A DNA stretch of 52,949 nt from Polyangiaceae bacterium (GCA_046351395.1 JAXLYP010000017.1:193508-246456); one strand, 5' to 3'; numbered from the stretch's first letter, positions 1 through 52,949 are shown. A program made the numbers and translations. The notes: a model not told the origin generated them from the letters alone.

Positions 1-242
1 TGCGTGCGGTCCGCTCGGCGCTCGAGGAGCTCACCGATCGCGAGCAGGACATCCTCCGGGTGACGGCGCTCTACCAGCGCCACGGCGAGAAGCACCAACG
101 TTTGCCGAACGACGTCTCGAGCGATCTCGCGACGCGTTGGGGCACGAACAACGAGAACATCCGCGCGATCCGCAGCCGCGCGATGAAGAAGCTCGAGGCT
201 CGCCTCCGAGAGGTGCTGCACGACGACGGGGGGGCGCGGTGA
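1..242 (+). CDS. RNA polymerase sigma factor, C-terminal region 4 (5'-partial)
   Basis: In-frame translation from pos 3: RAVRSALEELTDREQDILRV...NIRAIRSRAMKKLEARLREV matches sigma-70 region 4 helix-turn-helix; stop TGA at 240-242 overlaps a GTG at 239 (GTGA coupling). Confidence 0.6.
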   Translation, partial: RAVRSALEELTDREQDILRVTALYQRHGEKHQRLPNDVSSDLATRWGTNNENIRAIRSRAMKKLEARLREVLHDDGGAR

Positions 243-344
243 CCGTGGAACGAAAGGACGACGAGGTGGAGGCGATCGTGAGGCGCGCCGTCGGCGGGCT
301 CCTGCCGACGACGGAGGACGAGGTCCGGCGCGCGGAAGAAGAAG

Positions 345-1415
345 GTGTCGAGTTCGATGGAGAGCTGCCCGCAGGGCTCGCGTCCTTTCGACCGCGCGCC
401 GACGCCCAGCCGGCTCGAGGAGGCGCGTCGGCGGAACCATCGAGGAGCGCCGCGCCCGCCCGCGCACCGCGGTCACGACGGCGGGCAGGGTCGCGGACGT
501 CGTCTCGCTCGAGGATCGGCGCGCCCGGCGTCCGTCGGCGGTCCTCACGCACGCGGCGTTCGGCGCGCTCTGCGGGCGGCCGCCGCCGCGGCCGTCGTGC
601 TCTTCGTCCAGCGTCCTTCCAAGGAGATCGCGGGCGCGGGCCGCGCGGACGATCGCTCCCCGGGAGCGAGCGCGCAGACACACGCCACGCCAGCGCCGAG
701 CGCCGATCCCCCTCGGATCCAGGTCCCGGCGGGGCCCGCGTGCGCATCGAGCCCGACCGAGTGCCCCTCGGGCCGGGCGTGCGTTCCGACCTCGATGGAC
801 GAGATCAGCGCGAGCCGCTATCGCCTGAGGGTCGGTGATTTCGCGCCGACCGAGATCGGGAAGGAGGCGCTCTCGCGGGGACCCATCGACGTCTGCGCGC
901 GCGTGGGCGCCTCGGAGATCGCGTGCCGCCCGGCGCGCATCGGAGAGACGAGCAGCATGGTCGTGCTGCCGATCACGTTCAGCGGCAGCGAGGGCCTCTC
1001 CGGTGTCACGATCGACGTGCGCTTCCGCGGCGCGCAGGTGCCCATCGGACAATGGTCCGGACCGCTCGGCCTGTCCGCGAAGGGCCTCTGCAACGGTCAG
1101 CTCGTCGAGCCGACGCAGCCCGGGGGAGACAAACTCGGGACCATCTCACTCTTCGCCGACGACGCGACGTACGTCGAGGTCGGTCGCGCCGCGACGAGCA
1201 CGGACGCGGAGGCCATCGGCGCCGCGTTCGACACGCCGCTGCCCCTCCGCCTGTTCGAATCGAGCCGCCTTGGACCGGAGAAGTTCGTGGTCGCGTTCGG
1301 GCCCGTCACCGTCGTGGAGGCCGAGCGGATTCGGTGGGCGGTGAACGACGGGGGCGGGCACGCGACCGTGTCGCTCGGAGCAGACTTCCTTGGGGCTCCT
1401 CGCGCGCTTCGCTGA
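345..1415 (+). CDS. membrane-anchored protein, putative anti-sigma factor (start uncertain)
   Basis: Arg-rich cytoplasmic N-terminus, one TM helix (AAAAAAVVLFV), then a plausible extracytoplasmic domain with high GC3. An alternative start is GTG at 239 in frame 2, whose product carries an FDGEL motif. A frame switch (about 360-560) would be needed to join the two. Confidence 0.45.
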   Translation: MSSSMESCPQGSRPFDRAPTPSRLEEARRRNHRGAPRPPAHRGHDGGQGRGRRLARGSARPASVGGPHARGVRRALRAAAAAAVVLFVQRPSKEIAGAGRADDRSPGASAQTHATPAPSADPPRIQVPAGPACASSPTECPSGRACVPTSMDEISASRYRLRVGDFAPTEIGKEALSRGPIDVCARVGASEIACRPARIGETSSMVVLPITFSGSEGLSGVTIDVRFRGAQVPIGQWSGPLGLSAKGLCNGQLVEPTQPGGDKLGTISLFADDATYVEVGRAATSTDAEAIGAAFDTPLPLRLFESSRLGPEKFVVAFGPVTVVEAERIRWAVNDGGGHATVSLGADFLGAPRALR

Positions 1416-1500
1416 GCTGCTTCTCAGGCCGGTTTGGGGTGGCCCGTGAGGTGTCCCATCCCGCCTTCTCGGACGCCCACGCATGGCGCTTGGCGCCGGC
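1388..1500. repeat. about 115-bp repeat, copy 1 (paired with 4207..4322, same orientation, about 85% identity)
   Basis: Direct alignment: ...gggctcctcgcgcgcttcg..gagct.ct.c.cagg....ttggggtggcccgtgaggt...cccatcccgcc.ttctcggacgcccacgcatggcgct.gg.gccgg. Confidence 0.7.
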
Positions 1501-5647: not shown

Positions 5648-6859
5648 ATGCGACTCCGAAGCGCGCTCCTCCCCGCCTTGGGTGTATTGTCTGTCGCGTG
5701 TGGGGGCGGCGCCTCACCTCGTGTGCAGGAGCCGAAGCCGACTGGGCAGTGGCGGGGATCATCGACTGGGCAGTGGACGGGATCCCCGACCGGTGTGCCG
5801 TGGGGTGGCTCCATCGTCGCGGGCGGCCTTGCGATCCTGCGGAGCGGCGCGTGTCCGCTCACGGAGATCGCGCCGGGGCAGTGGGCCCAAGCGGCGTGCG
5901 CGCCCATCGTCCAGTTCAAGAACGCGCTGCCCTATCGGGCGCCACCTTTCGTGGCGAGCGCGCTCCCCGCCTATGTAGACCACCGCGCCTCGGGGCTCGA
6001 GGGCCCCGTGAAGAACCAACAGAACGTGGGCGCGTGCGGCGCCTTCTCCGTCACGACCGCGATGGAGAACGCGCTCCGCAAGCAAGGCCGGCAGGACGTC
6101 CTCTCGGCGCTCCATTACTACGTGAAGTACGGCACGGTCGCCGGCACCGGCGAGAACGGCGACGCGATCACCACGGACGCCGTCTGGCCGTACGACCCCG
6201 TGAAGGCATGCCTCTTGTCGCCCGACGAGGGCGGGGACACGTGCGATCAGGACTTCGGCGTCGTGCGGGGCGGCGGTCGCGGCGATCCGCGGTTGCGCGC
6301 CGAGCAGGCGAACGCAGACAGTCGCGGGCTCGTGCGGCTCGACCGCGCGTGGAGCATCGATCCCCGGGACGTAGACGCCATCGCGGCGATCCTCGCCGCC
6401 GGCGACGACGTCGACGCGACCTTCGCGTTCGATCGGGATGCGTGGAGCTACCGGGGGATCCAGAGCGGCGTCTTCAGCCACTACCAGGGCCCCAAGGACT
6501 ATGGTCATGGCGTCGTCCTCGCGGGGTATCGCTGGGTGAACGGAGAGCGCCAGTTCCTCATCCACAACAGCTGGGGCGCCGACTGGGCGGAGAGCGGCTA
6601 TGCGTGGATGGCGGAGAGCGACGTCCGCGCGAACCTTTGCTCGGCCTACAAGATCGATCTCGCCGAAGCGGGGACGCCGCGCCGGCCCGAGGAGACGGCG
6701 CACTATTGTCCGGGCGGGCTCCCTCCCATCGGCAACCAATGTATCCCCCTCCCGCAAGCCTCGACCGCGTGTCCGCCGGGCACGATCGGCCTTCCGGGTC
6801 TTTGTCTGCCCACCGGGGGCATCAATCCCCTCGGAGACCTCGCGCCAGGTGCGCCGTGA
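5648..6859 (+). CDS. papain-family (C1) cysteine peptidase lipoprotein
   Basis: Lipobox LSVAC; QNVGACGAFS (papain Q...C motif), YGHGVVLAGY and HNSWGADWAESGYAWM (His/Asn block). Confidence 0.75.
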   Translation: MRLRSALLPALGVLSVACGGGASPRVQEPKPTGQWRGSSTGQWTGSPTGVPWGGSIVAGGLAILRSGACPLTEIAPGQWAQAACAPIVQFKNALPYRAPPFVASALPAYVDHRASGLEGPVKNQQNVGACGAFSVTTAMENALRKQGRQDVLSALHYYVKYGTVAGTGENGDAITTDAVWPYDPVKACLLSPDEGGDTCDQDFGVVRGGGRGDPRLRAEQANADSRGLVRLDRAWSIDPRDVDAIAAILAAGDDVDATFAFDRDAWSYRGIQSGVFSHYQGPKDYGHGVVLAGYRWVNGERQFLIHNSWGADWAESGYAWMAESDVRANLCSAYKIDLAEAGTPRRPEETAHYCPGGLPPIGNQCIPLPQASTACPPGTIGLPGLCLPTGGINPLGDLAPGAP

Positions 6860-10515: not shown

Positions 10516-10516
10516 G

Positions 10517-11965
10517 TCAGAACCCCGTCGTCCCGCCGACGAGGAACCGGACGCTCTCGGGCTCGCCGCCCTCCGCGAACGGCTTCGTCCCGAAGCCCAA
10601 GAGGAGGTTCAACGCGTGGTCACGGTGATTCGGCGATTGGAACCCCCCGACGAACGAGAACCGGAGTCGCTCGAGTTCGAAGTCCTCGAAGTCGCGCCCG
10701 AACACGTTCCCCACCTGCGCGCGGAGCGTGGCGTCGACGAACGACCAGATGGGCCAGGTGTACGTGACGCTCGCCGCGGCGGACGTCTCGCCGAGGAGGC
10801 GCCCGGGGGTGAAGCCGAGGAGGGGCTCGTCGTCGGGCACGCGATCGGTCCGACCGCTCCCGATGAGCTCCGTGAACGGCACGCGCGCCGTGCTCGAGAA
10901 GGGCTCGATCGCGCGGACGTCCACGAGGAGCCCGAGCACGCGCCGCGTCCCCGTGACGTCGATGAACCCGCCCACGGACCCGCCCACCTGCGCCCACTCG
11001 ACGTGCGACCCGACGTCGCTCCCGAGCTCGGCGTGCGCGTCGAGCCCGACCCCGGAGCCCGGCCCTGGGCGCGGCTGTCGCGAGTCGAGCACGACGCGCC
11101 CACCGACCTTCACCGCGGTGTATCCGGCGAACCCGTCGGGGAGGGGATAGAGCCCTCGAGCGACCGCGCGGGAGATGGGCAGCGTAGGACACTCGTGTGG
11201 CCATACCGGGCAGCTCTCGTCGGAGAACGAGTGGTGCCGGACGACGGCCCAAGCCTCCACGAAATTGGCCTTTCGCGGCTCCACGTGGGTCCGAATGCCG
11301 CCTCCGACCGAGCGCTGCTCGAACCTCGACTCGTCCGCGTAGCGAGACCGGTACCCCACACCGTAGAACAGGTAGTCGGCGCGGACGACCCCGTCCGCCT
11401 CGAGCTGCAGGTTGGAGCGCACGCGGTGAGAGCCGTCGGGTTCGACCTCGACGTCGAGCGGGACGCGGTCGACCACGCGAGCTGCGAAGTACCTCTCGCC
11501 CCCCGTCGCGACCGACGCGCGGAGTTGATTGTCTGTCACGAGGAAGTCGTCGTAGAAGTGGTAGAGGCCGACGCTCGGACGAAAACCGAACTCGTAGAAC
11601 GCCGTCGGGATGAGGCCCACGTTGTGGTGAGGGCCGAACGTGAAGAAGTCGGTCACCTTCGCCACGATGCCCTCGCGGTCGATCACCGTGGTGATCGCGC
11701 CGAGGGGGCGCCGGATGACGTAGTCCGAGACCACGTAGAGCGGCGCGAAGAGGACGCGGGGGATCCAGAGCGCGCCCTCCGCCGCGGTCGTCTCGCGCGG
11801 TCTGCCCTCGTAGTCCTGCGGTGGGCGCTTCTCTCCGGGCGGCCGGGATGGATCCTCGGGGAGCACGGCGGGGTGCTCGGGGACGTCCCCCCGCGCCGGG
11901 GGCGCCGCCGCGAGGGCAGCGCCGAACGCGAAGACCATGGCACCGAGCGCCTTGGGCGAGTTCAT
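10517..11965 (-). CDS. secreted beta-barrel-like protein with C-terminal Phe (paralog of 23156..24616)
   Basis: Signal peptide MNSPKALGAMVFAFGAALAAAPPARG. Ends ...LRFSFVGGFQSPNHRDHALNLLLGFGTKPFAEGGEPESVRFLVGGTTGF*, nearly identical to the paralog's C-terminus. ATGA overlap with the upstream lipoprotein gene. Confidence 0.7.
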   Translation of the reverse strand: MNSPKALGAMVFAFGAALAAAPPARGDVPEHPAVLPEDPSRPPGEKRPPQDYEGRPRETTAAEGALWIPRVLFAPLYVVSDYVIRRPLGAITTVIDREGIVAKVTDFFTFGPHHNVGLIPTAFYEFGFRPSVGLYHFYDDFLVTDNQLRASVATGGERYFAARVVDRVPLDVEVEPDGSHRVRSNLQLEADGVVRADYLFYGVGYRSRYADESRFEQRSVGGGIRTHVEPRKANFVEAWAVVRHHSFSDESCPVWPHECPTLPISRAVARGLYPLPDGFAGYTAVKVGGRVVLDSRQPRPGPGSGVGLDAHAELGSDVGSHVEWAQVGGSVGGFIDVTGTRRVLGLLVDVRAIEPFSSTARVPFTELIGSGRTDRVPDDEPLLGFTPGRLLGETSAAASVTYTWPIWSFVDATLRAQVGNVFGRDFEDFELERLRFSFVGGFQSPNHRDHALNLLLGFGTKPFAEGGEPESVRFLVGGTTGF

Positions 11966-13779
11966 TGGAGGGCCGCGCCCGGCTCGTCGGGCCTCTGGAT
12001 GGCGACCATCTTGAAGTGGGAGGACGCCCCGAGATCGTACAAATGAACGCGCAGCGGACCCCGCGCCGCGCCGTTCGAGACGTCGAGCACCGCGTATCGA
12101 AGGGGGTGATCGTCGGGCAGCGAGCGGTCGTCCACGACGCGCGGTAGATCCACGCAGACCGTCGCATCGTCGCCGAGGCTGACGGGGAGGGCCTTTCGCT
12201 GGTCGAGGTCGAGCCCCGTCCGGAGCTCGGCGGCGTACGTGAACCGCGTCCTCGGCCAGGTGGTCGTCTTGTGCGCGAGATCGGTCGCGCAGACGCGGTC
12301 GCCCTCGACGGTCACGTCCGCCAGCGGGGATACGACGCTGAAATACCGCGTGAGGATCTCGTCCCTTCGTTGGATGAGTGTCCGCGTGAGGAACTCCGTC
12401 GCGCGAGGGTCCGTGTAGTCGCCGACCCGCACCGCGGCCGCGATGTTCGCGTCGGTGAAGCGCGACAGGATGCGCGCCGCCCACGCGCCGTCCTCCTCCG
12501 TCATGCGAGCGAACGCGGGGTTCGGGTAGCCGCCCTTCCAGTCCTCGGGCACGAAGTCCGGCCTGAAATAGTCGAACATCGGGAGCTCGGTGTTCGCGAC
12601 GGGCCGGTCCCATGGGCGCTCGAACGAGCCGAGCGTCAGGAGGTCGATCGCCACGTCCTCCGGATCGAAGTAGTAGCTGTGGTTGATCCTCCGGTTCCAG
12701 CTCTCCCATTGCCAATGGCTGCCAAAGCAGTCCCCGAGGTCGATGTACCAATGTGTCGTCCGCCCCGGAGAGGAGTCCTTCGACTCGGGGTCCACGGCGT
12801 CCCAGGTGGTCATCGTGTTTTGCTCGCGCGAATCGAAGTGCCCGAGCCACGCGGCCATGAGCCGCGCTCCGCGGAGATCCCTTCGGTCCTCGTGAGGGAT
12901 GATGTCGTTGGGATCGTCTTCTCGCGTCTCCTCGTACCGGAAGGGGCCGATCGCGCGTCCTGGGAGCCACCGCGACGCCACCATTCGTACGAGCCCACCT
13001 CGCTTCTGTGCGCTGTCGAGGATCGCCTGGAGCTTCCCGTCGTCGAACGGCATTTTGGTGCCCGTATTGTCTGCGTAATCGAGCCCGGGCTCGAGCCTGA
13101 GCCAGGACTTGTCGACGTAGACAATCGTGTCGCACGCGGTCCACCAGCCCGCGGCGTGGTAGAGCCTGGACGCGATGGATGTCGCCCCGGTCGCCTTCTC
13201 GCCTTCGCCCTCGGCGTCTGCCTTCAGCATGAACTTGCCGACGCCCTCGATCTCGACCCGAAAGCCCGGGTTCGCGCCGTTCGCCTTGCCCATGTCGACG
13301 CGCCAGGCGCCCGGTTCGTGCGGGGCCGTGGCGATCGTCTTGTGGCCGCAGCTCCCGCGCGTGATCTCCTCGTCGGTCATCGGCCTCACGCCGATGCGGT
13401 TCGTGAACCAGCTCGAGTCGGGCACCTCGTCGACCGCGTTCACGTTCCGCGCAGCGAAGCCGACGTCCGCGGCGAAGAACTTCACGATGGGCCGGAAGAT
13501 GGTCTTGTCGGCGACGTCCCATAGGAACGGGGACTCGTACTCTTCGGGCCGACAGAGTTGCTTCTTCGCGTCCTTCGGATCGGGGCGACACGGCACTCGG
13601 ACCGCCCGCAGATCCTCGTCGATCCAGACCGGGTCGCGGAGCGGGAACCGCCGGATGCCACCGCACCCCGCGACCGAGGTCGCCGCGCCGCTCGCCAGCG
13701 CCGCGCCGATCACGACTCGGCATGCGGCTCGCAGAATCTTTACGGCCCCCGCCTCGCGATGAGCCCACCGAATCGCCAT
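11962..13779 (-). CDS. secreted lipoprotein with atypical kinase-like motifs (paralog of the split 18997/21043 gene)
   Basis: Signal and lipobox (...ALASGAATSVAGCGG). Motifs LMAAWLGHFDSREQNTM (HxDxxxxN-like) and WYIDLGDCFGS (DxG) align with VLTALIGHQDDIGVNFY and LLSVDNGLAFG of the paralog. ATG at 13779 overlaps the divergent PAP2 start. Confidence 0.6.
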   Translation of the reverse strand: MAIRWAHREAGAVKILRAACRVVIGAALASGAATSVAGCGGIRRFPLRDPVWIDEDLRAVRVPCRPDPKDAKKQLCRPEEYESPFLWDVADKTIFRPIVKFFAADVGFAARNVNAVDEVPDSSWFTNRIGVRPMTDEEITRGSCGHKTIATAPHEPGAWRVDMGKANGANPGFRVEIEGVGKFMLKADAEGEGEKATGATSIASRLYHAAGWWTACDTIVYVDKSWLRLEPGLDYADNTGTKMPFDDGKLQAILDSAQKRGGLVRMVASRWLPGRAIGPFRYEETREDDPNDIIPHEDRRDLRGARLMAAWLGHFDSREQNTMTTWDAVDPESKDSSPGRTTHWYIDLGDCFGSHWQWESWNRRINHSYYFDPEDVAIDLLTLGSFERPWDRPVANTELPMFDYFRPDFVPEDWKGGYPNPAFARMTEEDGAWAARILSRFTDANIAAAVRVGDYTDPRATEFLTRTLIQRRDEILTRYFSVVSPLADVTVEGDRVCATDLAHKTTTWPRTRFTYAAELRTGLDLDQRKALPVSLGDDATVCVDLPRVVDDRSLPDDHPLRYAVLDVSNGAARGPLRVHLYDLGASSHFKMVAIQRPDEPGAALQ

Positions 13780-15790: not shown

Positions 15791-15793
15791 GCG

Positions 15794-16721: not shown

Positions 16722-17639
16722 TCAGAACTGCCCGCCCCAGGAGAGCTGCACGGGCGGCCGCGCGGTGACGAGCGGCGCGGACGCCGCCGCGCTCGTGTTC
16801 GGGCCGTCGACGGTCTGCGTGTAGTGCAGGGCGAGGGGGACCGCGAGGCCTACCCCGTACCCGAAGAGGAAGCCGCTGATCGCGTCGCTCATCCAGTGCC
16901 GATCGGAGATGACGCGCATCCCGGCGATGGTGACGGCGAGGGCCGTCGAGCCGACGCACGCGACGACGTCGGGCGCGCCGCCCCCGTAGAGCGGGACATA
17001 GGCGTGGTGGGCGCACGTCAGCCCCGCGCCGACCGCGCTCATCGTCGCGTGACCGCTGAACCAGCTCGCGTTGACGCCGAAGGAGCCACAGTCGTACGCC
17101 CAGCCTTTGTCTGTTTGGCATCCGATCCCGGCTGGGCGCTCCCGCGCGGCGAGCCGGTGGTTCACGCGCATGACGAGATACGCGATCCCGTAGGCCTCGA
17201 GGTTCATCGCCGTCAGCTGCTGGAGCATATCGAGGTTCTCGTCGATCGCCGGGACGAGGACTCCATCGATGAGGACGGGGTAGGCGGCGCTCACGGCGAG
17301 CAAGACGTCGCTCGCGATCTGAATGCCGCGTCGATCCTTAAGCCGCGGCATCGCGACGGCGTCGCGGGCGATCTCGTCGAACAGGATGGGCCCGATCCAC
17401 CGGGGCTCGATGGGCTGTTCGGTCCCGAACTCGATGATGCCCGCGCCGGTGATCGACAGGGCGGTGAGCGTGTACTCGCCCCACACGACGCGCGGGTGGG
17501 ACTCGTCCCAGTGCAGGCGGTGCTCGTCCTTGGCCTGCGCCGCTGCGCGCTCGCATGGCGCGAAAGCTGCGAGCGCCGCGCCCAGAAGGATCGCGTGTTG
17601 GTGTCTGTGCAGCGAGGAGTTCACCAGGGGATCCGTCAC
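16722..17639 (-). CDS. PAP2-family membrane phosphatase (paralog of 14774..15790)
   Basis: SWFSGHATMSAVGAGLTCAHHAY and RVISDRHWMSDAISGFLFGYG; signal peptide; ends in Phe. Confidence 0.65.
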   Translation of the reverse strand: MTDPLVNSSLHRHQHAILLGAALAAFAPCERAAAQAKDEHRLHWDESHPRVVWGEYTLTALSITGAGIIEFGTEQPIEPRWIGPILFDEIARDAVAMPRLKDRRGIQIASDVLLAVSAAYPVLIDGVLVPAIDENLDMLQQLTAMNLEAYGIAYLVMRVNHRLAARERPAGIGCQTDKGWAYDCGSFGVNASWFSGHATMSAVGAGLTCAHHAYVPLYGGGAPDVVACVGSTALAVTIAGMRVISDRHWMSDAISGFLFGYGVGLAVPLALHYTQTVDGPNTSAAASAPLVTARPPVQLSWGGQF

Positions 17640-21042: not shown

Positions 21043-21549
21043 ATGGCTGCTCGACCCGGTGAACGGGTACACCGCGACAACCTCGGGAACTTGAACGTGC
21101 TGACGGCGCTCATCGGTCACCAAGACGACATTGGAGTGAACTTCTACCGGTCGAAGGACGCGGCGCGCCCGCGGCTATTGTCTGTCGACAATGGGCTCGC
21201 GTTCGGCGCGATGGGAGACAATCCCATTCGGTTCTTCAGCAGCGCATGGAGCGACGTGCGAGTCCCGCTCCTGCCTTCGAAGACGGTGGACAGGCTCGGC
21301 TCGGTCGACCGGGCGCGCCTCGAGCCCCTCGGCGTGGTCGCGCAGATGCGCCTCGAGGGCGGCGCGTTCCATCCCATCCCACGGACGCCGACGCTCGATC
21401 CGAACCAGGCCGTGCGCTGGAACGGGGACGACGTCCAGCTCGGGCTCACCGCCGAGGAGATCACGGACGTCGATGTCCGGCTGGCACGGCTCCTCGGCGC
21501 GATCGACTCCGAGGAGGTCCAGCGCGGTCGTCCCCGCGAATCGAAGTGA
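21043..21549 (+). CDS. C-terminal kinase-like fragment (continuation of 18997..19599)
   Basis: NVLTALIGHQDDIGVNFYRS (HxDxxxxN) and LLSVDNGLAFG (DxG), homologous to the same motifs in 11962..13779. High GC3. Confidence 0.5.
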   Translation: MAARPGERVHRDNLGNLNVLTALIGHQDDIGVNFYRSKDAARPRLLSVDNGLAFGAMGDNPIRFFSSAWSDVRVPLLPSKTVDRLGSVDRARLEPLGVVAQMRLEGGAFHPIPRTPTLDPNQAVRWNGDDVQLGLTAEEITDVDVRLARLLGAIDSEEVQRGRPRESK

Positions 21550-32622: not shown

Positions 32623-34107
32623 ATGGACGCAGAACCGGAGTCCGACGCTCGCGCGCCGTCGTCGGCGCCGACCTCCGCACCCCTGTCGGACGCGGAGCCC
32701 GCGGTGTCCACGCCAATGTCTGTCGCCGATCCGCCGCGACCCGAGCCCGCGCGACCGACGAGGCCCAGCCGAGATCGACGCGTCGTCGCGGGGATCGTGG
32801 CCGCGCTCGTGGCGGTCGCGGTCGCCGCGTGGGTGATCGTTCGCGCGCTCGCGGGAGCGCCGCGCGTCGCGTTCGGTGTGGCCGCGCTGTCGTCCGACGA
32901 GGCGATCCTCTTCACGCGCCGCGGGGACGGCGCGGCGGCGCGCGTGAACGCCGTCGAGCTCGTCCGCGCGACTGGAGGCCTCCGGTGGACTCATGACGTG
33001 AGCCCACTCGAACCGTTCGAGGTGTCCGGGTACTCCGCAGTCGCCGCGAGTGACGATCGCGTCGTCCTCTCCGGCGCCCGCGACGGGGGGACGGTCGTCG
33101 AAGCGCTCGTTCGGACGTCGGGCGACTTCGCGTGGGCGACCGTCGTCGCGCGGGACGCGTCCACGCCGCGCGCGGGGCCGATGCTGCTCGTGGACGCGCC
33201 TCGCGTGTACGCGATCCACGCGAAGGCGGGTGGGGGAGCGGCGATCACCGCGCTCGAGCTGGACGCGGGCCACGCGCTCTGGACGCTCGACCTCGCCTCG
33301 CCGGACGCGCCGGTCGTGCTGCTCGCGGCGGAGCGTCTCCTCGTCGGGGGGAGCGACGGCGTCGCGCTCGTCGACGGCGTCACCGGTGGAGTGAAGCGCG
33401 CGGTCCCGATGAGACAGATCGCGTGCGAGACGCCGCTCGGGGTCGTCGGGTTCGACGGGGCTCATCACGTGACCCTGTTCGCCCCGCCCGGGCCGACCGG
33501 TGAATCGGGGGCGTCGGTGACCGAGCTCGATCGAAATGCGTCGCGTGGCCCGTGCGGCGTGCGCGGCGAGGATGTGGTGTTCAGCGTCGTCCGGGACGGC
33601 AGGCGCGGCCTCATGCGACTCGAGCCGACGACGGGGAGGCAGCGGTGGATCGTGGATCTCGGCTCGGTCGAGCTCGGCGCATTCGAGACGGTCGACGGGC
33701 GGCTGCCCCGCTTCCTCCCCGTCGCGCTGACGCGTCGAGCGGACGACGCGACCCACGTGGCGGTCGTCGACGTGGACGAGGGCGTCGTCGTCAGAGACCC
33801 ACCCATCGACGCGCGCGCGAGCGCGTTCGTGAGCGCTGAGCGCGCGTGGATTCGCGCCGGTTCGGTGATCGTCGCCCTCGACCCTGCGACGGGGAACATC
33901 GAGCGCGCAACCTCCTATCCCTCGCTCTTTCGGGAGGGCGTCGTCCGTCGCGACGACGCGCGGTTCGGTGTCCTCTTCGCCGTCGGGGACGACAGTCGCC
34001 GTCCCCCCGACCTACCGTGGATCGCGATCGATCTCGCGACCGCGCTCACGCGCCGCACGAACGGTGGGGTCGCGTCGACCGACGTGACGGCTCGCGGCTG
34101 GCCCTGA
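32623..34107 (+). CDS. membrane-anchored PQQ-like beta-propeller repeat protein
   Basis: Acidic N-terminus, TM (VVAGIVAALVAVAVAAWVIV), and repeated ...GHALWTLDL / ALDPATGNI propeller blades. Confidence 0.6.
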   Translation: MDAEPESDARAPSSAPTSAPLSDAEPAVSTPMSVADPPRPEPARPTRPSRDRRVVAGIVAALVAVAVAAWVIVRALAGAPRVAFGVAALSSDEAILFTRRGDGAAARVNAVELVRATGGLRWTHDVSPLEPFEVSGYSAVAASDDRVVLSGARDGGTVVEALVRTSGDFAWATVVARDASTPRAGPMLLVDAPRVYAIHAKAGGGAAITALELDAGHALWTLDLASPDAPVVLLAAERLLVGGSDGVALVDGVTGGVKRAVPMRQIACETPLGVVGFDGAHHVTLFAPPGPTGESGASVTELDRNASRGPCGVRGEDVVFSVVRDGRRGLMRLEPTTGRQRWIVDLGSVELGAFETVDGRLPRFLPVALTRRADDATHVAVVDVDEGVVVRDPPIDARASAFVSAERAWIRAGSVIVALDPATGNIERATSYPSLFREGVVRRDDARFGVLFAVGDDSRRPPDLPWIAIDLATALTRRTNGGVASTDVTARGWP

Positions 34108-35850: not shown

Positions 35851-36203
35851 GCGGCGAATCAGAACAGGAGCGGCGCCAACGCGAAAGGTGAATGGCGGCG
35901 GGAGCCCGTGGGAGCGAGCTGCCGCCCGAGATCGTTCAGGAAACCGCGCGTCGGTTCAGGGCGGCCGCGCCCAGCGCGATCCTTCAGGGCGTAGCTCGTC
36001 CGCCGCGAAGGTCTCCACAGGGTCGTCGCTCGAGGGCGTCACTCCACGGAGCAGACTCAGGCCACCGGTGTAGTCCAAGGACCACGCGCGCCATTGTCTG
36101 CATACCCAGTGTCGATCGCGTCATCACGCCCGGGTGTCCGCGCGGGACTCGCGGTGGCGAGCGCGTCGTCCGACTGGAGTATCACCGAGCGGGCCGGCTC
36201 TCT

Positions 36204-36223: not shown

Positions 36224-36333
36224 TAGTGCGTGGTGACGGCAGCGCGCTTCGAGCGCAGTCGGCGTGATAGGGAGAACCCTTGGTTCGGTGCGCGTGAAAC
36301 GAACCCGCGCCGATCGGGCGCGCTGGTCGCCGA

Positions 36334-36353
36334 GACAATATGGAAATCCATGG
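36334..36353. promoter_or_regulatory. AT-rich 20-bp motif copy 2 (GACAATATGGAAATCCATGG)
   Basis: 130 bp after copy 1. Confidence 0.5.
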
Positions 36354-36403
36354 GTTTGGTGAGCCGGATAGGCGGTTCTCGGGACGCGCTGGTTCTTTCC
36401 TCA

Positions 36404-36423
36404 GACAATATGGAAATCCCTGG
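36404..36423. promoter_or_regulatory. AT-rich 20-bp motif copy 3 (GACAATATGGAAATCCCTGG)
   Basis: 70 bp after copy 2. A partial fourth copy (GGAATCCCTCCATGG) lies at 36464-36477, after an A8 run at 36449-36456. Confidence 0.5.
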
Positions 36424-37753: not shown

Positions 37754-37754
37754 C

Positions 37755-38120: not shown

Positions 38121-38294
38121 ACCCGTTCGAGAAGCGAGCAGATCCCCGGGCCCGGGCGCGACAAAGCGTCATCGGGGTGACGCCCGAGCGTCATCGTTTT
38201 GACAGTCTTCGCGCGATCCACGCGTTAGAACGTACCCAACAGCCGATCGATAGGAGGGGGTCTTCGATGCCCAATACGATTTTGTTCGATCAAG

Positions 38295-40158: not shown

Positions 40159-40817
40159 GGCGCGCCGCGTTCGCCGTTCCCGGAGAGGAACTCGGAGTAT
40201 GGGCGCCCGCCACGCTCCTGTCGTGCGGCGCCCTGGGCGCGGTCGTCGTCGCGGTCCTCCTCGGATCCCCCGCCGTCCCCGCGGAGGCGAGCTCGATGTC
40301 GCGCGCGACGCCGGGCGCGGAGGGCGCCGCAGCGACGGTGTCCACGGACGCGATCCGCCCGCCGACCGCGCCGTCGATCGCGCCGCCGCCGCCTGCACCG
40401 AGCGCGATCGCTGCACCCCCGGGCCCCTCGGGGTCGGGCGGGGCGATCCCTCAATGTCCACCCGTGCGGGTGGGCTTCCAATCGAACGCGTTCGGCCCGA
40501 GCCCCGCGGCGATCACCGAGCTCGACCGGCTCGCGGCGTGGCTGCGCGAACATTCGGACACGACGCTCGTCGTGAGCGGGCACGCCGACGCGGTGGGCAC
40601 GGAGGACGGCAATTTGCGCCTCAGTCACATCCGCGCGGAGTCGATCGCGCGAGAGCTCTCGGCGCGAGGGGTGGCTCGGAGCCGCATGACGGTGCGGGGG
40701 TATGGAGCCTATCAGCCCCTCGAGGGCGTGCTCGAGGACGCCGCAGACAATCGAAGGGTCGTCATCTATGTCCGCGGGGATTGTCTCCGCGGCTTCGAGG
40801 AGGTCATAGGACCATGA
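40155..40817 (+). CDS. OmpA/MotB-like peptidoglycan-binding domain protein with Pro-rich linker
   Basis: GTGA overlap with the RR stop; TM/signal; OmpA-like block LVVSGHADAVGTEDGNLRLSHIRAESIARELSARGV...RGYGAYQP. Confidence 0.65.
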   Translation: MRRAAFAVPGEELGVWAPATLLSCGALGAVVVAVLLGSPAVPAEASSMSRATPGAEGAAATVSTDAIRPPTAPSIAPPPPAPSAIAAPPGPSGSGGAIPQCPPVRVGFQSNAFGPSPAAITELDRLAAWLREHSDTTLVVSGHADAVGTEDGNLRLSHIRAESIARELSARGVARSRMTVRGYGAYQPLEGVLEDAADNRRVVIYVRGDCLRGFEEVIGP

Positions 40818-43050: not shown

Positions 43051-43826
43051 CACACACGTCCCTTCTTCTTCTTGATCCCAGGCTTCGATGCGGCGGGCTC
43101 GGTCTCTCCGGGCCGCGCGGTGCGAGTCAGTTGGTGCGCGGCGGAGAGCCGCGCGGGGGTCGCCCCCCAGCTCGTGAGCAGCGCGCCGGACGCGAAGCGA
43201 CCAATGTCTGCGACGCTCGGCGCGCGGCGCGCGACGCGACGCGCTTTGTCCATGCAGTGAGCCCCGTGGAGCGCGGACCAGAACGCGTAGACGCGCGCGT
43301 TCGCGTCCCCGGGGGAGAGCGCCTCGGTCTCTTGAGCGAGCGCGAAGACGGACTCCATGCGCTCGAGGAAGGCCCCGAGGAGCGGAGCGGTCTTCGTCGC
43401 CTCTTCGTCGGAGAGGAGTTGTCGGGGGTCCCCGAGGAGGCGCGCGACGAGGCGCCACTCGTGCGGGTGCGTATCGGGGAGAGAGAGGTAGAGGTCGGCG
43501 AGCGTGAGGAGCGTCGCGAGGCTCGCCGTAGCGGGTGCGACCTTGCCGAGCGTCGCGGTGAGGGTCTCGAGCTCGGATTCGAAGTGCGCGCTGATCTCGC
43601 GCACGGCGCGCCGCTGCAGGGCGGCGATGAGCGCGTCCTTGGAAGGGAAGTAGCGGTAGATGGCCGTCGTCACGAGCCCGAGGGTCTGCGCCACGCGCTG
43701 GAGGGTCAGCCCGTCGAGATCGTCGGACTCGAGGATCTCCATCGCGCGGTCCAGGATCGCCTCCGTGCGGAGCTCCCGCCGGTCGCTCGCCCGCGTCGTG
43801 GCGTCGCCGTTGTGAATCATGTTCAC
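43050..43826 (-). CDS. TetR-family transcriptional regulator
   Basis: LTLQRVAQTLGLVTTAIYRYFPSKDALIAAL helix-turn-helix. Stop shares one nt with the start of the hydroxylase gene. Confidence 0.75.
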   Translation of the reverse strand: MNMIHNGDATTRASDRRELRTEAILDRAMEILESDDLDGLTLQRVAQTLGLVTTAIYRYFPSKDALIAALQRRAVREISAHFESELETLTATLGKVAPATASLATLLTLADLYLSLPDTHPHEWRLVARLLGDPRQLLSDEEATKTAPLLGAFLERMESVFALAQETEALSPGDANARVYAFWSALHGAHCMDKARRVARRAPSVADIGRFASGALLTSWGATPARLSAAHQLTRTARPGETEPAASKPGIKKKKGRV

Positions 43827-43972: not shown

Positions 43973-44728
43973 ATGACGCGCTTCTCTCGAACTTCAACGT
44001 GGGCGATGTGCGCGCTGATCCTCGCGGGGTGCGGCGGCAGTCCCGCGCGTGTCGCGGGGGACCGCGGTCCGAGCGCGTCGGCGAGCGTGGCGGCGAATCC
44101 ACCCGGGGCCACGAGCGCGCCCGAGCCGGTGGGAGGGGACGGCGAGCGGGTCGTGGCGGGCGAGTCGCCCGGGACTCCCGTGATCGCGCCGCCGCCCCCG
44201 GAGGAGCCGCGCCCCGCGCTGCTCTCGACGTGTGAGGAGCGCCGGAGCATCGTGATCCACAAGGCGGAGCGGACGTTGGAGCTTCGATGCGGGGACGCGC
44301 TCGCGGCGCGGTTCGCGGCGTCGCTCGGGAATGCGCCGGAGGGCGCGAAGCAGCACGAGGGGGACGGGCGAACGCCGGAGGGGGACTACTTCATCAGCAT
44401 GAAGTACCCGAGCCAGTACCATCGGTCGCTCCAGCTCGCGTATCCGAACGTCGCGGACGCGGACGCGGGGCTCGCGAAGGGGACGATCAAAGCGACGGAG
44501 CACGCGAAGATCGTGCAGGCGTACGCCACGTGTCGCGAGCCACCCCAGACGACGGCGCTCGGGAGCTTGATCCAGATCCACGGCGGCGGCGGCGGTCCGG
44601 ACGTGGGCGATTGGACGCTCGGTTGCGTCGCCGTGGACAACGACGAGATCGAGGTGGTGTTCGCGTTTCAAAAGCCGGGGTGCGACGCGCAGAATCGCCC
44701 GAACACGCTCGTCCGAATCCTTCCTTGA
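43973..44728 (+). CDS. L,D-transpeptidase (YkuD-fold) lipoprotein
   Basis: Lipobox LAGC; catalytic block LIQIHGGGGGPDVGDWTLGCVAV. Confidence 0.7.
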   Translation: MTRFSRTSTWAMCALILAGCGGSPARVAGDRGPSASASVAANPPGATSAPEPVGGDGERVVAGESPGTPVIAPPPPEEPRPALLSTCEERRSIVIHKAERTLELRCGDALAARFAASLGNAPEGAKQHEGDGRTPEGDYFISMKYPSQYHRSLQLAYPNVADADAGLAKGTIKATEHAKIVQAYATCREPPQTTALGSLIQIHGGGGGPDVGDWTLGCVAVDNDEIEVVFAFQKPGCDAQNRPNTLVRILP

Positions 44729-44918
44729 GGGGCCGACCGCTCCCACGGGCATCGCGGATTGTCTGTCACGCCGCGGGCGCGCGCTCGCTCGGCGGTCGAC
44801 GCGGCGGTGGGACGCGCGCACGCGGGGTCGTTCTCGAGGTGGGGCGGGCGCCTGACGGGAGGCTCGGGAGGCGGTCGACGCGTGCAGCGGGCTGCGCGGA
44901 ACGCGCTATCGTCGACGT

Positions 44919-48426: not shown

Positions 48427-48478
48427 GAAGACTCATGCCCCCAAGTTCCCACGTGCGCGAGATGGACACTACTGCGCG
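48427..48478. repeat. about 50-bp repeat, copy 1 (pairs with 50163..50216)
   Basis: gaagactcatgcccccaagt.c..acgtgcgcgagatggac.cta.tgcgc shared directly. Confidence 0.6.
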
Positions 48479-50106
48479 GGAAGCTTCAGCGTCTCCGCGC
48501 CGGATCCGTCGTCGCCCTTGCCGCCGGCATCCGATGCACCACCCAGCCCGCCGCCCGCTCGCGTGGACGTGAAGCCAGCGGCCGGTGCCGAGGTCACGTA
48601 GGCGATTGCCAACGAGTGTCCGCCGTGGCCGCCGCCACCCGCGCCGCCATTGCTGCCCTGGCCTCCCTTGCCTCCATCGCAGGCCGTCGGGGTGCCGGCG
48701 CCAGAGCCGGCATTGCCGCCCTTTCCGCCGACCGCACCAAACTGTCCAGCTGCGCCGCTTCCGCCGGCGCCACCCTTGCCGACGGTGAAGCTCACGCCCG
48801 AGAGAGTTGGGGCCGCGCCCAGGACGATCATCCCGATGCTCGCGCCCCCAGCGCCGCCTCCGGGGGCTCCGTGGCCCCCGCAACCGCCCGCGCCGCCGCC
48901 GCCCCTGCTCGCGCCGCGAATGTCTGCGAGAGGCGGCGTCACGTCCTTGAGTCCCTTCGCGCCGCCGCCTCCGCCTCCGAGGCCGGGACGCCCGTCCTCG
49001 CCGACTCCGCCGGAAGCTCCTGCGTAGCCCATCGAGGAGATTGTCCCCGGCAGGGTCGCGTTCGGGCCCGGCATGACGGAGGCGCCGTTGGAGCCCTGAT
49101 GTCCGGGCGCGCAGCCACCCCCCATGTCACCAGGTCCTCCCACGCCATCATTCCCCGCCACAATCGGGGGCGTTGGCGTCGCAGTCCCATCATCACCCTT
49201 TATGCCGTCGCTTGCGACCGCAACGACCTTTCCACCCTCTCCTCCAGCCCCGCCAGTGGTCGTGCAAAACGGGTTCGTCCCCGGGAGTCCACCTGGATTG
49301 GTCATGGTCGGCGTGGTCGTGTTGGCGTCGGCCCCGACGCCGCCCGCGATGGGGGCGGCCATCGAGTTTGTCGGACCGATGTTGTCCGTCGGCGTGGTGC
49401 TGTCCTGTCCCGCGGCAGCGTCGCCCGTCTCCACGTCCACGTCCGCAAACACGGACGGGACCTCGCCCACGATCACTCCAATCGCGCTCGAGCCCGGCGC
49501 CGCGCCCGCAGTCGCAAGGACCTTCAGGCGGTCGACCTCCGTCGTCCCCTGACCATCCGCCAGCCTCAGGCCGATCTCGCCCGCATCCGGCTCGAGCGTG
49601 GTGCGCGCGTCCGCCGCCTTGATCTTGTACCCCGCCGAACAATCCAGGCCGCCATACACGACCACCCCCGCCGGAAGCACGATGCCGCTCGTGTCCGTCA
49701 GCGCGCCCTCACAGACATAGATCGTCTTGCCCGCCGTCCACGCGATGACCGCGGCGCTCAACGTCTTGAGGGGCGCCGCCATCGTCCCCGCCTGCATGTT
49801 GTCGCCCCCCACCGGGTCGACGAACACCCCGCACGAGTCCCCCTTCGTCGGACCGCTCGTCAGAGACACGGCGCAGTCCATCGACACCCCCGTGCTGCTC
49901 GACGTCATCGTCGCGGATGACGAATTCGTCATGCTCGCCGCCGTCGTACTCGAGGTCGCGCCTCCTGCGCCCCCGGAGCAAGGAGCCGAGTGATCCGCGC
50001 AGGAGTCCGTGGACTCCGAGGGGCACCCGGCCATGAGGCTCGCGAGCGCGAGCGACGCCACGAGCGCGCAGGCGCTGGTCTTGATGTGCGAACGAGGAAG
50101 CGTCAT
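48469..50106 (-). CDS. DUF1565-like (parallel beta-helix) lipoprotein with Gly-rich C-terminal region, paralog A
   Basis: Lipobox LMAGC; ...PLKTLSAAVIAWTAGKTIYVCEGALTD...; long (GGx)n region. Confidence 0.6.
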   Translation of the reverse strand: MTLPRSHIKTSACALVASLALASLMAGCPSESTDSCADHSAPCSGGAGGATSSTTAASMTNSSSATMTSSSTGVSMDCAVSLTSGPTKGDSCGVFVDPVGGDNMQAGTMAAPLKTLSAAVIAWTAGKTIYVCEGALTDTSGIVLPAGVVVYGGLDCSAGYKIKAADARTTLEPDAGEIGLRLADGQGTTEVDRLKVLATAGAAPGSSAIGVIVGEVPSVFADVDVETGDAAAGQDSTTPTDNIGPTNSMAAPIAGGVGADANTTTPTMTNPGGLPGTNPFCTTTGGAGGEGGKVVAVASDGIKGDDGTATPTPPIVAGNDGVGGPGDMGGGCAPGHQGSNGASVMPGPNATLPGTISSMGYAGASGGVGEDGRPGLGGGGGGAKGLKDVTPPLADIRGASRGGGGAGGCGGHGAPGGGAGGASIGMIVLGAAPTLSGVSFTVGKGGAGGSGAAGQFGAVGGKGGNAGSGAGTPTACDGGKGGQGSNGGAGGGGHGGHSLAIAYVTSAPAAGFTSTRAGGGLGGASDAGGKGDDGSGAETLKLPAQ

Positions 50107-50298: not shown

Positions 50299-51897
50299 TC
50301 ATTCGGGCAACTCCATGGACGCCGCGACGCTGCCGTCTGCGCCACTCGTCGCCTGATCAATACCGTTCGAGCCACCGCTGCCGCCCATGCCGGCGGTTCC
50401 GGGAGACGCGACTGTGGGCATCTCCGTCGGTGGCGATCCCGCATAGGCCACCGCGATAGCGTGCCCGCCACGACCGCCGCCCCCAGACCCGCCGTTCCCG
50501 CCGGAACCTCCAGTGCCACCACCACACGCGGGTTTGACGCCCCCGCCGCCCATACCCCCGCCCATGCCTGTGCCCCCCAGCTGACCAAGCTGCCCGTTCC
50601 CGCCTCTACCGCCGACGCCACCCGACCCGAGCGAGATGGAGACATTGCTGAATGAGATCGTCGAGTGGAACGACAGAACGCCGATGCTCGAGCCACCGCC
50701 GCCGCCACCGGTTCCCTTGGTACCCCCACAGCCCCCCGCACCGCCACTCCCGCCGCCAGCCCCGTGCACTGTGGCCGTGGCCTTCGATCCCCCGCCGCCT
50801 CCCGCGCCTTGGCCCCTCTTTCCAGATCCGCCGTCGCCACCCGACGCGTTTGCATAGGCGCCCGCCGTCAGCTGTCCGAAGGTACTCATCGATGCCCCTT
50901 GCCCGGTTGAGCCATCCATTCCGCCCGCGCCGAACCCTCCACCACCAACTCCGGTCGCGCAACTCCACATCACGCCGCCGTTGTCGCCGATTCCGCCCAG
51001 CGTGGGACCCAGGTTGTCGTCTCCATTGTCTCCGGCGGCTCCGTTTCCGTTCATGATGGTGCCTCCGTCACCGCCCTTGCCACCATTGCTTACACCGTCC
51101 GGGCACGTGTTGTTGGCCGATTTTGCGCCACCCGCAAGCATCACGTCTGCTGCATTCTTGCCAGGGTTGCCGCCTGGCGCCTGATTGGCCTGCGGCCCAC
51201 CGTCGACGCCGGCAGACCCGGGGGCGCCATCTCCGCCCACGAGTACCGCGTTGTTGATGTCCAGGGTGGCATTCGCAGCATGAACTACTACGCTCGAGGC
51301 TCCCATCGTGGTCGCCTTGGGTGAGGTCAGGTCGATTGAATCGACCACCGAGCCCCCTGAACCAGTGATAGAGAGTGCCGGCTGGTTGACGGATCCCATC
51401 ACCTGGGGGTGAGGGTTGGAGTGCGAAAACGTCCAGTCGGTGCATGACAGCCCGCCGAGCAGGGAAATGCCGCCTGGCAGTGTGATGGAACCGTCGAAGG
51501 ATCCGCTGCCGCAGACATATACGCGTGGCTTCTCACTCGTCGTTGCAGCAACGGCCTCAGCGATACTCCCCAGAGGATCCATCTGAGTTCCGCCTCCCGA
51601 CGCCCCCTGCTTTACGAACACGCCACACTCGGCACCGACCGGCTTCCCCTCGACGAGCGCACATTGCTCAGGGGTTCCGGTCGAGGAAGACACTGTTGAC
51701 GTACTCGTCATGCTCGCCGCCGTCGTGCTGGACGACCCCGAGCCACCACCCGTTCCCGACGGGCAGCCCGCGTCGTACAGTTCGGGGTGTGTGTTGCAGG
51801 TGTTCTCTTGGTCGAAGAACACGCATGAGCCCGTCAAGCAGGCGGCGACCAGCGAAAGTGCGATGGAACCTCGGGTCAACTGTCGCTGGCTTCTCAT
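50299..51897 (-). CDS. DUF1565-like lipoprotein with Gly-rich C-terminal region, paralog B
   Basis: Lipobox LTGSC; ...PLGSIAEAVAATTSEKPRVYVCGSGSFDGSI...; Gly-rich tail. Confidence 0.6.
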   Translation of the reverse strand: MRSQRQLTRGSIALSLVAACLTGSCVFFDQENTCNTHPELYDAGCPSGTGGGSGSSSTTAASMTSTSTVSSSTGTPEQCALVEGKPVGAECGVFVKQGASGGGTQMDPLGSIAEAVAATTSEKPRVYVCGSGSFDGSITLPGGISLLGGLSCTDWTFSHSNPHPQVMGSVNQPALSITGSGGSVVDSIDLTSPKATTMGASSVVVHAANATLDINNAVLVGGDGAPGSAGVDGGPQANQAPGGNPGKNAADVMLAGGAKSANNTCPDGVSNGGKGGDGGTIMNGNGAAGDNGDDNLGPTLGGIGDNGGVMWSCATGVGGGGFGAGGMDGSTGQGASMSTFGQLTAGAYANASGGDGGSGKRGQGAGGGGGSKATATVHGAGGGSGGAGGCGGTKGTGGGGGGSSIGVLSFHSTISFSNVSISLGSGGVGGRGGNGQLGQLGGTGMGGGMGGGGVKPACGGGTGGSGGNGGSGGGGRGGHAIAVAYAGSPPTEMPTVASPGTAGMGGSGGSNGIDQATSGADGSVAASMELPE

Positions 51898-51921
51898 GTT
51901 TCAAATCTCCAAGCTTCGGAA

Positions 51922-52800
51922 TCAGAAGTGCGTCGAGAGCTCGACGCCGAACGCATCTGTGCTGACGATGGGGACGACGGCCACGGGCGCGGGCTCGGAC
52001 TGTGGCTTTCCCAGCGCCCATATCAAGAGGACTGTGGAGGGGATGGCCACTACGCCCGCGCTGATGAACAACCACGGAGACGCGTTGCTCAACGTTCGCT
52101 TGTTCGTTTCGAAGTCCGTCCCCGCCTCGCACGGGTAGGAAGGGCAGTGAAAGTCCGGGTCGGCATTGGCCGCGACAGCGGTTCCAATGCCCGCACCGAG
52201 GAGTCCCGCGGTCACGCTCAGGCCCAAGATGGCCGGCCAAATCGGTCTGTGCTGCCCGGGCGGAGGCGTCGTCGGAAAAGGGATGACCACGGGCTCTGGT
52301 GGCTTCGTGCCCGCCACCGCATCGAAGTCCACCGCACCCTTCTTGGCGCCCGAGGTCGCTTCGAAGTGGTGCTTGCCCGGGTCCAAGAACAGCGTGATGG
52401 GGCCGCGTCCCATAGGCTGTGAATCGATGGTGATATCCGCCGAGGTCTCGGCACCCTGCACCGTCAGCTCGGCCACGTGCTCCTTCGCCTTCTTCAGGGC
52501 GTCCAGAAAGTCCTGCTCGACTCCCGACGTCGAATTCTTCGCGTAGAACGCGATGTGCGTCGCCCCCTCGCGGTACTTTCCGAGCTCGACCTCACACTTC
52601 CCCTGAAGTCCGCGGATCTGGCCGTGCTGGAAAATGGCCCACGCTGCTTCGGCTTTTGCGACGCACTCGCTCCAATCCTTTCGCCCCGCGGCGATTCCGG
52701 CCTGTTCGAACACCTTGGCGGCATCGTCCGCCGGGTCTGCGCTCGCCACCCCCGCCACGCTCATGGCGGCGAGTGAGGCGATCATCCATGACGCTTTCAC
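51922..52800 (-). CDS. secreted hypothetical protein with C-terminal TM segments; lower GC than its neighbours
   Basis: GGAGGGAG upstream of a GTG start that overlaps the upstream stop (GTGA); signal peptide MKASWMIASLAAMSVAGVASA; ends in Phe. Confidence 0.5.
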   Translation of the reverse strand: MKASWMIASLAAMSVAGVASADPADDAAKVFEQAGIAAGRKDWSECVAKAEAAWAIFQHGQIRGLQGKCEVELGKYREGATHIAFYAKNSTSGVEQDFLDALKKAKEHVAELTVQGAETSADITIDSQPMGRGPITLFLDPGKHHFEATSGAKKGAVDFDAVAGTKPPEPVVIPFPTTPPPGQHRPIWPAILGLSVTAGLLGAGIGTAVAANADPDFHCPSYPCEAGTDFETNKRTLSNASPWLFISAGVVAIPSTVLLIWALGKPQSEPAPVAVVPIVSTDAFGVELSTHF

Positions 52801-52949
52801 GGTTTGCTCCCTCCGAACTTCGTCGAATAGGGACTGCTTGCTGTCGGTGCTGCGCTCGGCGTGACCTGGGGTGTCGTGGGGGTCGTGCCGACGCTCGGGC
52901 TCGTGCTCTTCACCGTCGGCGCGATCGGTGCCCCCGTCGTCACCGCCGG
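52797..52949 (-). CDS. 3' end of an upstream gene (Pro/Thr-rich tail), 5'-partial
   Basis: High-GC3 frame ...TGAPIAPTVKSTSPSVGTTPTTPQVTPSAAPTASSPYSTKFGGSKP* running off the window end. Confidence 0.35.
   Translation of the reverse strand, partial: PAVTTGAPIAPTVKSTSPSVGTTPTTPQVTPSAAPTASSPYSTKFGGSKP

Follow-up and report, generated by a model that had tools for sequence, protein, structure and literature searches.

A 53-kb stretch of chromosome from an uncultured soil myxobacterium of the Polyangiaceae (52,949 nucleotides of a single metagenome-assembled genome, or MAG; hereafter the window) carries one short DNA word, the octamer ATTGTCTG (reverse complement CAGACAAT), far more often than chance allows. 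Counted over both strands of this one window, the octamer is present in 11 copies where 0.31 would be expected, an excess of about 35-fold. The heptamer ATTGTCT/AGACAAT has 16 copies against 0.6-1.3 expected and ranks first among 8192 heptamers under Markov expectations, and the family of words built on ATTGTCT also heads the outlier lists at k = 6, 8, 9, and 10. ATTGTCTG/CAGACAAT is a genuine and highly specific DNA word of 7-8 bp, with ATTGTCT(G) as its core, and ATTGTCTG is not identical to its own reverse complement.

An earlier note on this DNA had pointed to the heptamer TTGTCTG/CAGACAA as over-represented, and the enrichment proves stronger than it claimed: all 14 copies are present, against 1.5 ± 1.2 in 100 dinucleotide-preserving shuffles, the largest count among these being 6 and none of the 100 reaching 14. 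TTGTCTG takes only second to ninth place among the 8192 heptamers under Markov expectations, however, and the true core, ATTGTCT(G), had been missed. Every position listed for the exact copies holds except 36104, a slip for 36094. One-mismatch relatives do exist, 0-2 bases from where they had been placed (AATGTCT at 27573, 32715, 43203, and 48919; ATTGTCTCC at 40780 and 51025), and the longer contexts said to be shared are real, GATTGTCTGTCACG standing at 11527 and again at 44757, TATTGTCTGTCG at both 5685 and 21176.

The word is sharply delimited. When up to one mismatch is allowed, ATTGTCTG has 36 matches (0.7 per kb) against 12.7 expected; perfect copies are enriched about 35-fold and one-mismatch copies only about 2-fold. 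Among the one-letter variants of ATTGTCT, AATGTCT (8 copies), TTTGTCT (5), and ATTGTCC (7) are enriched, and most others lie at expectation. The flanks of 24 aligned sites hold approximately 0 bits of information, except at +1 (G) and +2 (pyrimidine). A subclass, ATTGTCTGTCRCG, is found at 5686, 11528, 23602, and 44758 and recurs in closely similar form at 21177 and 32715. Independent heptamer copies number about 14, because 11528 and 23602 lie in paralogous genes and 36333 and 36403 in copies of a longer repeat.

Twelve of the 16 heptamers are genic and four are non-coding, three of the latter in a divergent spacer of 830 bp (35.9-36.7 kb) and the fourth 30 nt past a stop codon. A comparison of coding and non-coding DNA, much like a check proposed by the earlier note, gives similar densities of 0.27 and 0.47 per kb, respectively. 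The same note had named a codon-pair preference in one reading frame as an explanation that would refute its observation. Synonymous codons were shuffled 2000 times within each of 44 genes, with the protein sequence and the codon usage of each gene kept, and the shuffled genes contain 0.83 ± 0.88 heptamers (maximum 5 in the 2000 shuffles) against the 12 observed, so that codon-pair or dipeptide bias is rejected as the cause. By the same procedure a control word, GTTCTAC, is largely explained (11 observed against 6). GTTCTAC/GTAGAAC has 12 sites (e.g., 2012, 11594, and 23536) against about 1 expected by composition, and represents the ordinary Phe-Tyr pair TTC-TAC.

The coding copies are made of the rarest codons in their synonymous families, with usage between 1 and 19%: CTA 1%, GTA 2%, TCT 3%, ACA 4%, GCA 5%, TTG 6%, CCA 7%, ATT 9%, GGA 13%, and AAT 19%. 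The frame NNA-GAC-AAT, encoding x-Asp-Asn, holds seven of the 12. The genes contain 18 Asp-Asn dipeptides, of which nine are written GAC-AAC and nine GAC-AAT, and seven of the nine GAC-AAT pairs are preceded by an A-ending codon, a class that makes up only 6% of all codons. That a rare A-ending codon and the rare AAT travel together is expected if the DNA word is the unit under pressure. The word could be written at 16 x-Asp-Asn sites, where codon usage predicts 0.16 copies and seven are found; the corresponding figures are two copies at 73 NNA-Leu-Ser sites (0.01 expected), one at 12 Ile-Val-x sites (0.17 expected), and one at seven Gln/Lys/Glu-Thr-Ile/Met sites (0.22 expected). The word is thus enriched in each frame that offers opportunities, and it is also found in non-coding DNA, with four copies in 8.5 kb.

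The seven x-Asp-Asn copies are distributed as follows. At 11528..11535 (+), ATTGTCTG lies in a BamA/TamA-like outer-membrane protein (OMP) gene (10517-11965, minus strand) whose sense strand reads ACA GAC AAT (T-D-N), and at 23601..23608 (-) it encodes the same three residues with the same codons in the paralogous OMP gene (23156-24616, plus strand). A further ATTGTCTG, at 13066..13073 (+), lies in a lipoprotein gene (11962-13713, minus strand; sense GCA GAC AAT, A-D-N). At 21216..21222 (-), ATTGTCT is followed by C in gene 21043-21549 (sense GGA GAC AAT, G-D-N). The ATTGTCTG at 26635..26642 (-) falls in a Ser/Thr kinase-FGE gene (26076-27797, plus strand; sense CCA GAC AAT, P-D-N), within the kinase-domain peptide DLKPDN, and the ATTGTCTG at 40744..40751 (-) in an OmpA-family gene (40155-40817, plus strand; sense GCA GAC AAT, A-D-N of ADNRRV). 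The last, ATTGTCT followed by C at 51025..51031 (+), is probably coding, in a Gly-rich open reading frame (ORF; 50299-51897, minus strand) with an uncertain start (sense GGA GAC AAT, G-D-N). The other frames are represented by ATTGTCTG at 5686..5693 (+) in a C1-peptidase gene (5648-6859, plus strand; NCBI MFO0616331.1), within the lipoprotein signal peptide, where GTA TTG TCT (V-L-S) combines codons holding 2, 6, and 3% of their families; at 21177..21184 (+) in gene 21043-21549 (plus strand), where CTA TTG TCT (L-L-S) uses a codon that accounts for 1% of Leu codons; and at 24017..24024 (-) in OMP gene 23156-24616 (sense CAG ACA ATC, Q-T-I). ATTGTCT is followed by A at 13119..13125 (-) in the lipoprotein gene (sense ATT GTC TAC, I-V-Y), and by C at 40780..40786 (+) in the OmpA-family gene (GAT TGT CTC, D-C-L), a short way upstream of GAGGAGG, the ribosome-binding site that serves the following gene. 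The non-coding copies are ATTGTCTG at 36093..36100 (+), ATTGTCT followed by C at 36333..36339 (-), ATTGTCTG at 36402..36409 (-), and ATTGTCTG at 44758..44765 (+), which lies past the stop codon of a YkuD gene (44006-44728).

The weight of the Asp-Asn frame raises the question of a signal in mRNA or translation, in which transcripts would favor in-frame A-GAC-AAU as, say, a site of pausing, cleavage, or binding, with the other copies arising as by-products. Seven of the 12 coding copies are in this frame, which is 44% saturated compared with 8-14% in two frames of comparable prior probability, and the sense strand reads AGACAAT in eight of the 12. This 8:4 bias is not significant, however, and arises because of the Asp-Asn frame. 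In addition, antisense and other-frame copies are still enriched (five against about 0.5 expected), the variant AATGTCT has no sense preference, and 8.5 kb of non-coding DNA also holds four copies. A transcript signal is quite an unlikely source of the word.

Neither strand is preferred. The heptamer is divided 8+/8- and the octamer 6+/5-, and no bias co-oriented with replication is seen while the cumulative GC skew climbs monotonically over the first 48 kb, the direction of replication itself being only inferred. The Chi- or KOPS-like (FtsK-orienting polar sequence) signal once suggested for the word is thus not supported. Words of the Chi and KOPS type are co-oriented with replication and only few-fold over-represented. 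The word resembles them in being short, asymmetric, and mostly genic with kilobase spacing, but departs from them in its lack of polarity and its approximately 35-fold excess. A recombination hotspot read by RecBCD or AddAB would agree with a short, asymmetric, lineage-specific, and mostly genic word at about one per 3-5 kb, but the even use of both strands along a steadily climbing skew and an excess far above that of Chi make this very unlikely.

Copies of the word also tend to stand close together, with four gaps of 100 bp or less where 0.45 would be expected (P = 0.0005). Three of these pairs are inverted, 13066/13119, 21177/21216, and 40745/40780, the first- and last-named having the copies described above as their left and right arms, and they form hairpins better than shuffled sequences do (z = -3.2, -2.6, and -2.1, respectively), with complementarity that reaches a few bases past the word. 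The earlier note's palindrome at 21176 is a dyad, located at 21177, but an imperfect one, ATTGTC-TGTC-GACAAT. The fourth pair, 36333/36403, is direct and is part of a triplicated element, ...ACA(A/G)TATGGAAATCC....

This element occupies 36190-36430, in the 830-bp divergent spacer upstream of an operon for a PAS histidine kinase, Roadblock and ODP proteins, and a response regulator (36680-40158). Its three copies, ...GACA(G/A)TATGGAAATCC(A/C)TGG..., hold the near-palindrome ATGGA-AA-TCCAT, and their ATGGAAATCC cores begin at 36211, 36341, and 36411. The word had been reported as embedded in the triplicated sites, which lie at 36.2-36.4 kb, and this applies to two of the three, copy 2 (GAGACAATATGGAAATCCATGG) and copy 3 (CAGACAATATGGAAATCCCTGG), which overlap the heptamers at 36333 and 36402; the first copy reads ACAGTATGG. 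The triplicate itself looks like a repeated regulator-binding site. A sigma-54 promoter in the same spacer was considered and rejected, as the candidate TGGTTTGATGGGTTGCA has a GG-GC spacing one base too long. That three copies of the word cluster in this spacer, and that one site forms the dyad ATTGTC-N4-GACAAT, would suit a promoter element or a set of global transcription-factor sites, the latter also proposed in the earlier note. Nevertheless, 12 of the 16 copies are intragenic and far from gene starts, the density in coding DNA is close to that in non-coding DNA, the flanks hold no promoter-like information, and most sites have no conserved partner half-site. A regulator site is a highly improbable explanation of the word as a whole.

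The origin of the word can be followed in relatives, a collection of 45 non-redundant related Polyangia loci (262 kb, 63-75% G+C), five of which carry OMP homologs (genome locus L001 and four Logan contigs) and 40 of which were recovered with a degenerate pattern on a conserved stretch of the lipoprotein gene. No octamer occurs in these 45 loci, and only three heptamers do, where their own composition predicts 8.8; the density of the window would give 54 octamers and 79 heptamers. At the x-Asp-Asn site orthologous to 13066, NNA GAC AAT is found in none of 41 sequences. A close relative was not among the sequences found, the nearest relative of the OMP showing 66-69% amino-acid identity. Judged by these loci, the word is specific to the Polyangiaceae lineage of the window and is not enriched in the sampled related Polyangia, a feature that the earlier note had missed. 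Candidates for a word of the relatives' own, a "dialect," all proved to have other causes: AAGTAGT is due to the Tyr-Phe codon pair, which recurs where positions are homologous, AAGCCTAA to a 15-bp tandem repeat in L039, AACAAGGT to a 198-bp protein repeat in L022, and ATTGGTAC to paralogous H-W-Y sites in L001.

The lipoprotein ortholog in a related MAG (L001) aligns without gaps over the inverted pair 13066/13119, reading ACG GTC GTC TAT and GCG GAC AAC where the window reads ACG ATT GTC TAC and GCA GAC AAT. In the OMP family, relatives have AAG GAC AAC or ACC GAC AAT at the site where both window paralogs have ACA GAC AAT. Since the orthologous precursors differ and the alignment is free of gaps, the word has been created by point substitutions, against codon bias and not by insertion. 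A repetitive extragenic palindrome, a miniature inverted-repeat transposable element, or any other dispersed repeat is rejected as its carrier: no dispersed repeat family holds the word, its flanks are uninformative, and the orthologs show no insertion.

The same comparison bears on a sequencing or assembly artifact of the single MAG, such as long-read miscalls induced by base modification. The word is seen in one assembly only, and look-ups with 20 window proteins found no independent contig over any site. A fixed miscall, however, turns a single true word into a single false one, so that the true word, once abundant enough to yield 16 copies, should now be missing; no such deficit is seen in any of the 31 words that A>G or T>C changes connect to ATTGTCT. 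Moreover, the orthologous precursors vary between sites, and the amino acids encoded by some copies match those of homologs (e.g., Q-T-I at 24018 compared with Q-T-F). Two independent assemblies are 100% identical to the window over 1455 bp in total (547 + 908 bp), although neither spans a site. These contigs (L005 and L006) correspond to window positions 15783-16690 (Logan SRR14234089) and 45735-46281 (ENA ERZ15184844, assembled with SPAdes and seen in four samples), and their identity implies that other data sets contain the same strain, at low coverage. An artifact is very unlikely, the least probable of the explanations considered.

A pattern that extends over both strands, every frame with opportunities, and both coding and non-coding DNA would require a cause that works on double-stranded DNA and is blind to strand and frame. 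The best reading, a tentative one, is that the word may be an orientation-independent recognition word of double-stranded DNA, spread by point substitution, like the tags used in DNA uptake or like the cyanobacterial word HIP1. In such a model, a lineage-specific DNA machine that recognizes sequence would have a preference that lets the word accumulate. As in the best-known case, the uptake sequences of naturally transformable bacteria, word-bearing DNA would be preferentially taken up and recombined. Molecular drive would spread the word through the genome, where it would settle wherever proteins tolerate it, here mainly in NNA-GAC-AAT encoding x-Asp-Asn. The paired uptake sequences of those bacteria would have their equivalent here in the close inverted pairs.

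Uptake signal sequences (USS) occur in both orientations and are fitted into genes, and both properties are observed for the window word. USS are characterized by strong over-representation, a specific core, and coding and terminator constraints (PMC3458573), and those of the Pasteurellaceae (core AAGTGCGGT) present the same picture of one short asymmetric word dramatically over-represented in its own genome (PMC3458573). Unlike USS, the window word has a core of 7-8 bp without flanking tracts, a density of 0.2-0.3 per kb, and a myxobacterial host of 70% G+C. Copies of the DNA uptake sequence (DUS) occur as inverted pairs seated at terminators, and inverted pairs are a likeness to the window. 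The DUS of the Neisseriaceae, present in thousands of copies with lineage-specific dialects and an essential core CTG, is likewise a lineage-specific word that differs among related lineages (PMC3630211); the window word also ends in CTG, a resemblance only and not evidence. In contrast, DUS are 10-12 bp long, the pairs in the window are intragenic, no ComP-like receptor is known in its lineage, and in the sampled relatives no dialect word could be detected.

HIP1 (GCGATCGC) offers a different model, in which the word would have a selected role in the chromosome or nucleoid, or would be tied to an orphan DNA methyltransferase and a repair system, and not to uptake. It is an octamer over-represented 15- to 300-fold both within ORFs and between them, nothing points to a function at the gene level, and its role is debated (PMC5861425); it is a palindrome overlapping methyltransferase sites (PMC4390886). 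The gross pattern in the window matches that of HIP1 (PMC5861425; PMC4390886), being independent of orientation, present in coding and non-coding DNA alike, and able to override codon choice. However, HIP1 is palindromic and phylum-wide, whereas the window word, AT-rich and asymmetric, is restricted to a single lineage as judged against 45 sampled loci; a non-palindromic word cannot be a symmetric methylation site, and no near-word is visibly depleted, as repair-driven conversion would predict, the counts being small. A HIP1-like role is a rather unlikely alternative and is ranked below an uptake or recombination tag; smaller shares fall to a transcript signal, Chi, a regulator site, and an artifact.

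Several observations speak against an uptake-type word. The material is 53 kb of one MAG, so that abundance applies to the window and not to the genome at large. The source organism has given no evidence of competence or of a word-specific receptor, with no competence gene among the genes identified in the 53-kb window, and Myxococcota are not known to have an uptake sequence. USS and DUS lie at roughly 1 per kb, and the density here is below that figure, with a shorter core as well. The inverted pairs are not at terminators. Finally, the Asp-Asn frame, with seven of 16 sites occupied, is more saturated than one frame-blind advantage predicts from Ile-Val-x (1/12) and Gln/Lys/Glu-Thr-Ile/Met (1/7), which hints at an extra sense-strand or translation component.

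Variant copies of the word are also dispersed over the window. AATGTCT is found at 21858..21864 (+) in an MFS/TLC transporter gene (L-N-V-F), at 29179..29185 (-) in gene 28364-29629 (sense GGA GAC ATT, G-D-I), and at 50640..50646 (-) in ORF 50299-51897 (minus strand; S-N-V-S). Its longer form AATGTCTG lies on the plus strand at 26341..26348 in the kinase gene (K-C-L), at 27573..27580 in the FGE domain (peptide G-N-V-W-E-W), at 32715..32722, as AATGTCTG(TC), in a PQQ-propeller gene (32623-34107), at 43203..43210 in gene 43050-43826 (minus strand), and at 48919..48926 in ORF 48469-50106 (minus strand), the last two with the sense codons GCA GAC ATT (A-D-I). TTTGTCTG is found, again on the plus strand, at 6801..6808 near the 3' end of the C1-peptidase gene, at 17106..17113 in a PAP2 gene (16722-17639, minus strand; sense ACA GAC AAA, T-D-K), and at 29073..29080 in gene 28364-29629 (V-C-L). 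The site at 21216 stands at the center of ATGGGAGACAATCCCAT (21209-21225), a 17-bp near-palindrome with GACAA in the middle, inside gene 21043-21549; the 12-mer GGAGACAATCCC is seen again at 40778 (40778-40789), and GGAGACATTCCC at 29177 (29177-29188). With their GGGA/TCCC arms, these three may make up a second sub-class of the word.

The window is ordinary chromosome of 70% G+C throughout, and its proteins match an NCBI MAG named "Polyangiaceae bacterium" (locus tags U0414_273xx, proteins MFO0616331-MFO0616367). Besides the C1 peptidase, its genes encode a cyclic-nucleotide-binding protein, an Npt1/Npt2 nucleotide transporter, two BamA/TamA-like OMPs in inverted orientation, three PAP2 phosphatases, an MFS/TLC transporter, a Ser/Thr kinase fused to an FGE domain, a type VI secretion sheath protein, the PQQ propeller protein, the histidine kinase-Roadblock-ODP-response regulator operon, an OmpA protein, and a YkuD transpeptidase. 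Scans of the window with Rfam and for tRNA genes gave no match. The two OMP genes, 10517-11965 (-) and 23156-24616 (+), are 62% identical, lie about 11 kb apart, and are each close to a gene for a nucleotide- or MFS/TLC-type transporter; the gene order lipoprotein-OMP-transporter-cyclic-nucleotide-binding protein is also found in two relatives (L002 and L007). ORF 24654-26060, which has no Pfam match, contains at 25297-25440 a 24-bp unit repeated five times in tandem, the shown strand reading ...CCGCCGAAGGCGCC.... Near 48 kb the GC skew flips sharply from +0.17 to -0.11, coinciding with a change of gene strand, and G+C falls to 65% between 48000 and 52949. This end holds two glycine-rich repetitive ORFs on the minus strand, 48469-50106 and 50299-51897, whose sequences, with the starts chosen, were absent from the protein collection.

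Hyper-abundant short words are a rarity among bacteria, and those that are understood (USS, DUS, Chi, and KOPS) each exposed a machine that reads the chromosome. We know of no hyper-abundant word of this kind described for Myxococcota, and a literature search for the word returned unrelated matches only and no such word in this phylum. It is rather unlikely, but conceivable, that an uncultured Polyangiaceae lineage tags its own DNA with the 8-bp ATTGTCTG, read by a sequence-specific uptake or recombination system. If so, systems of the uptake-sequence type would for the first time extend beyond the Neisseriaceae and Pasteurellaceae, and Myxococcota would have their first, one young enough that sister lineages lack it. 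A word present in one lineage and not enriched in its relatives would point to a young system, whose reader gene could be found by comparative genomics as one present only where the word is abundant, and in which the mode of spread, drive or selection, would be directly measurable. The word would also be a practical lineage marker for binning and for the detection of horizontal transfer in Polyangia metagenomes.

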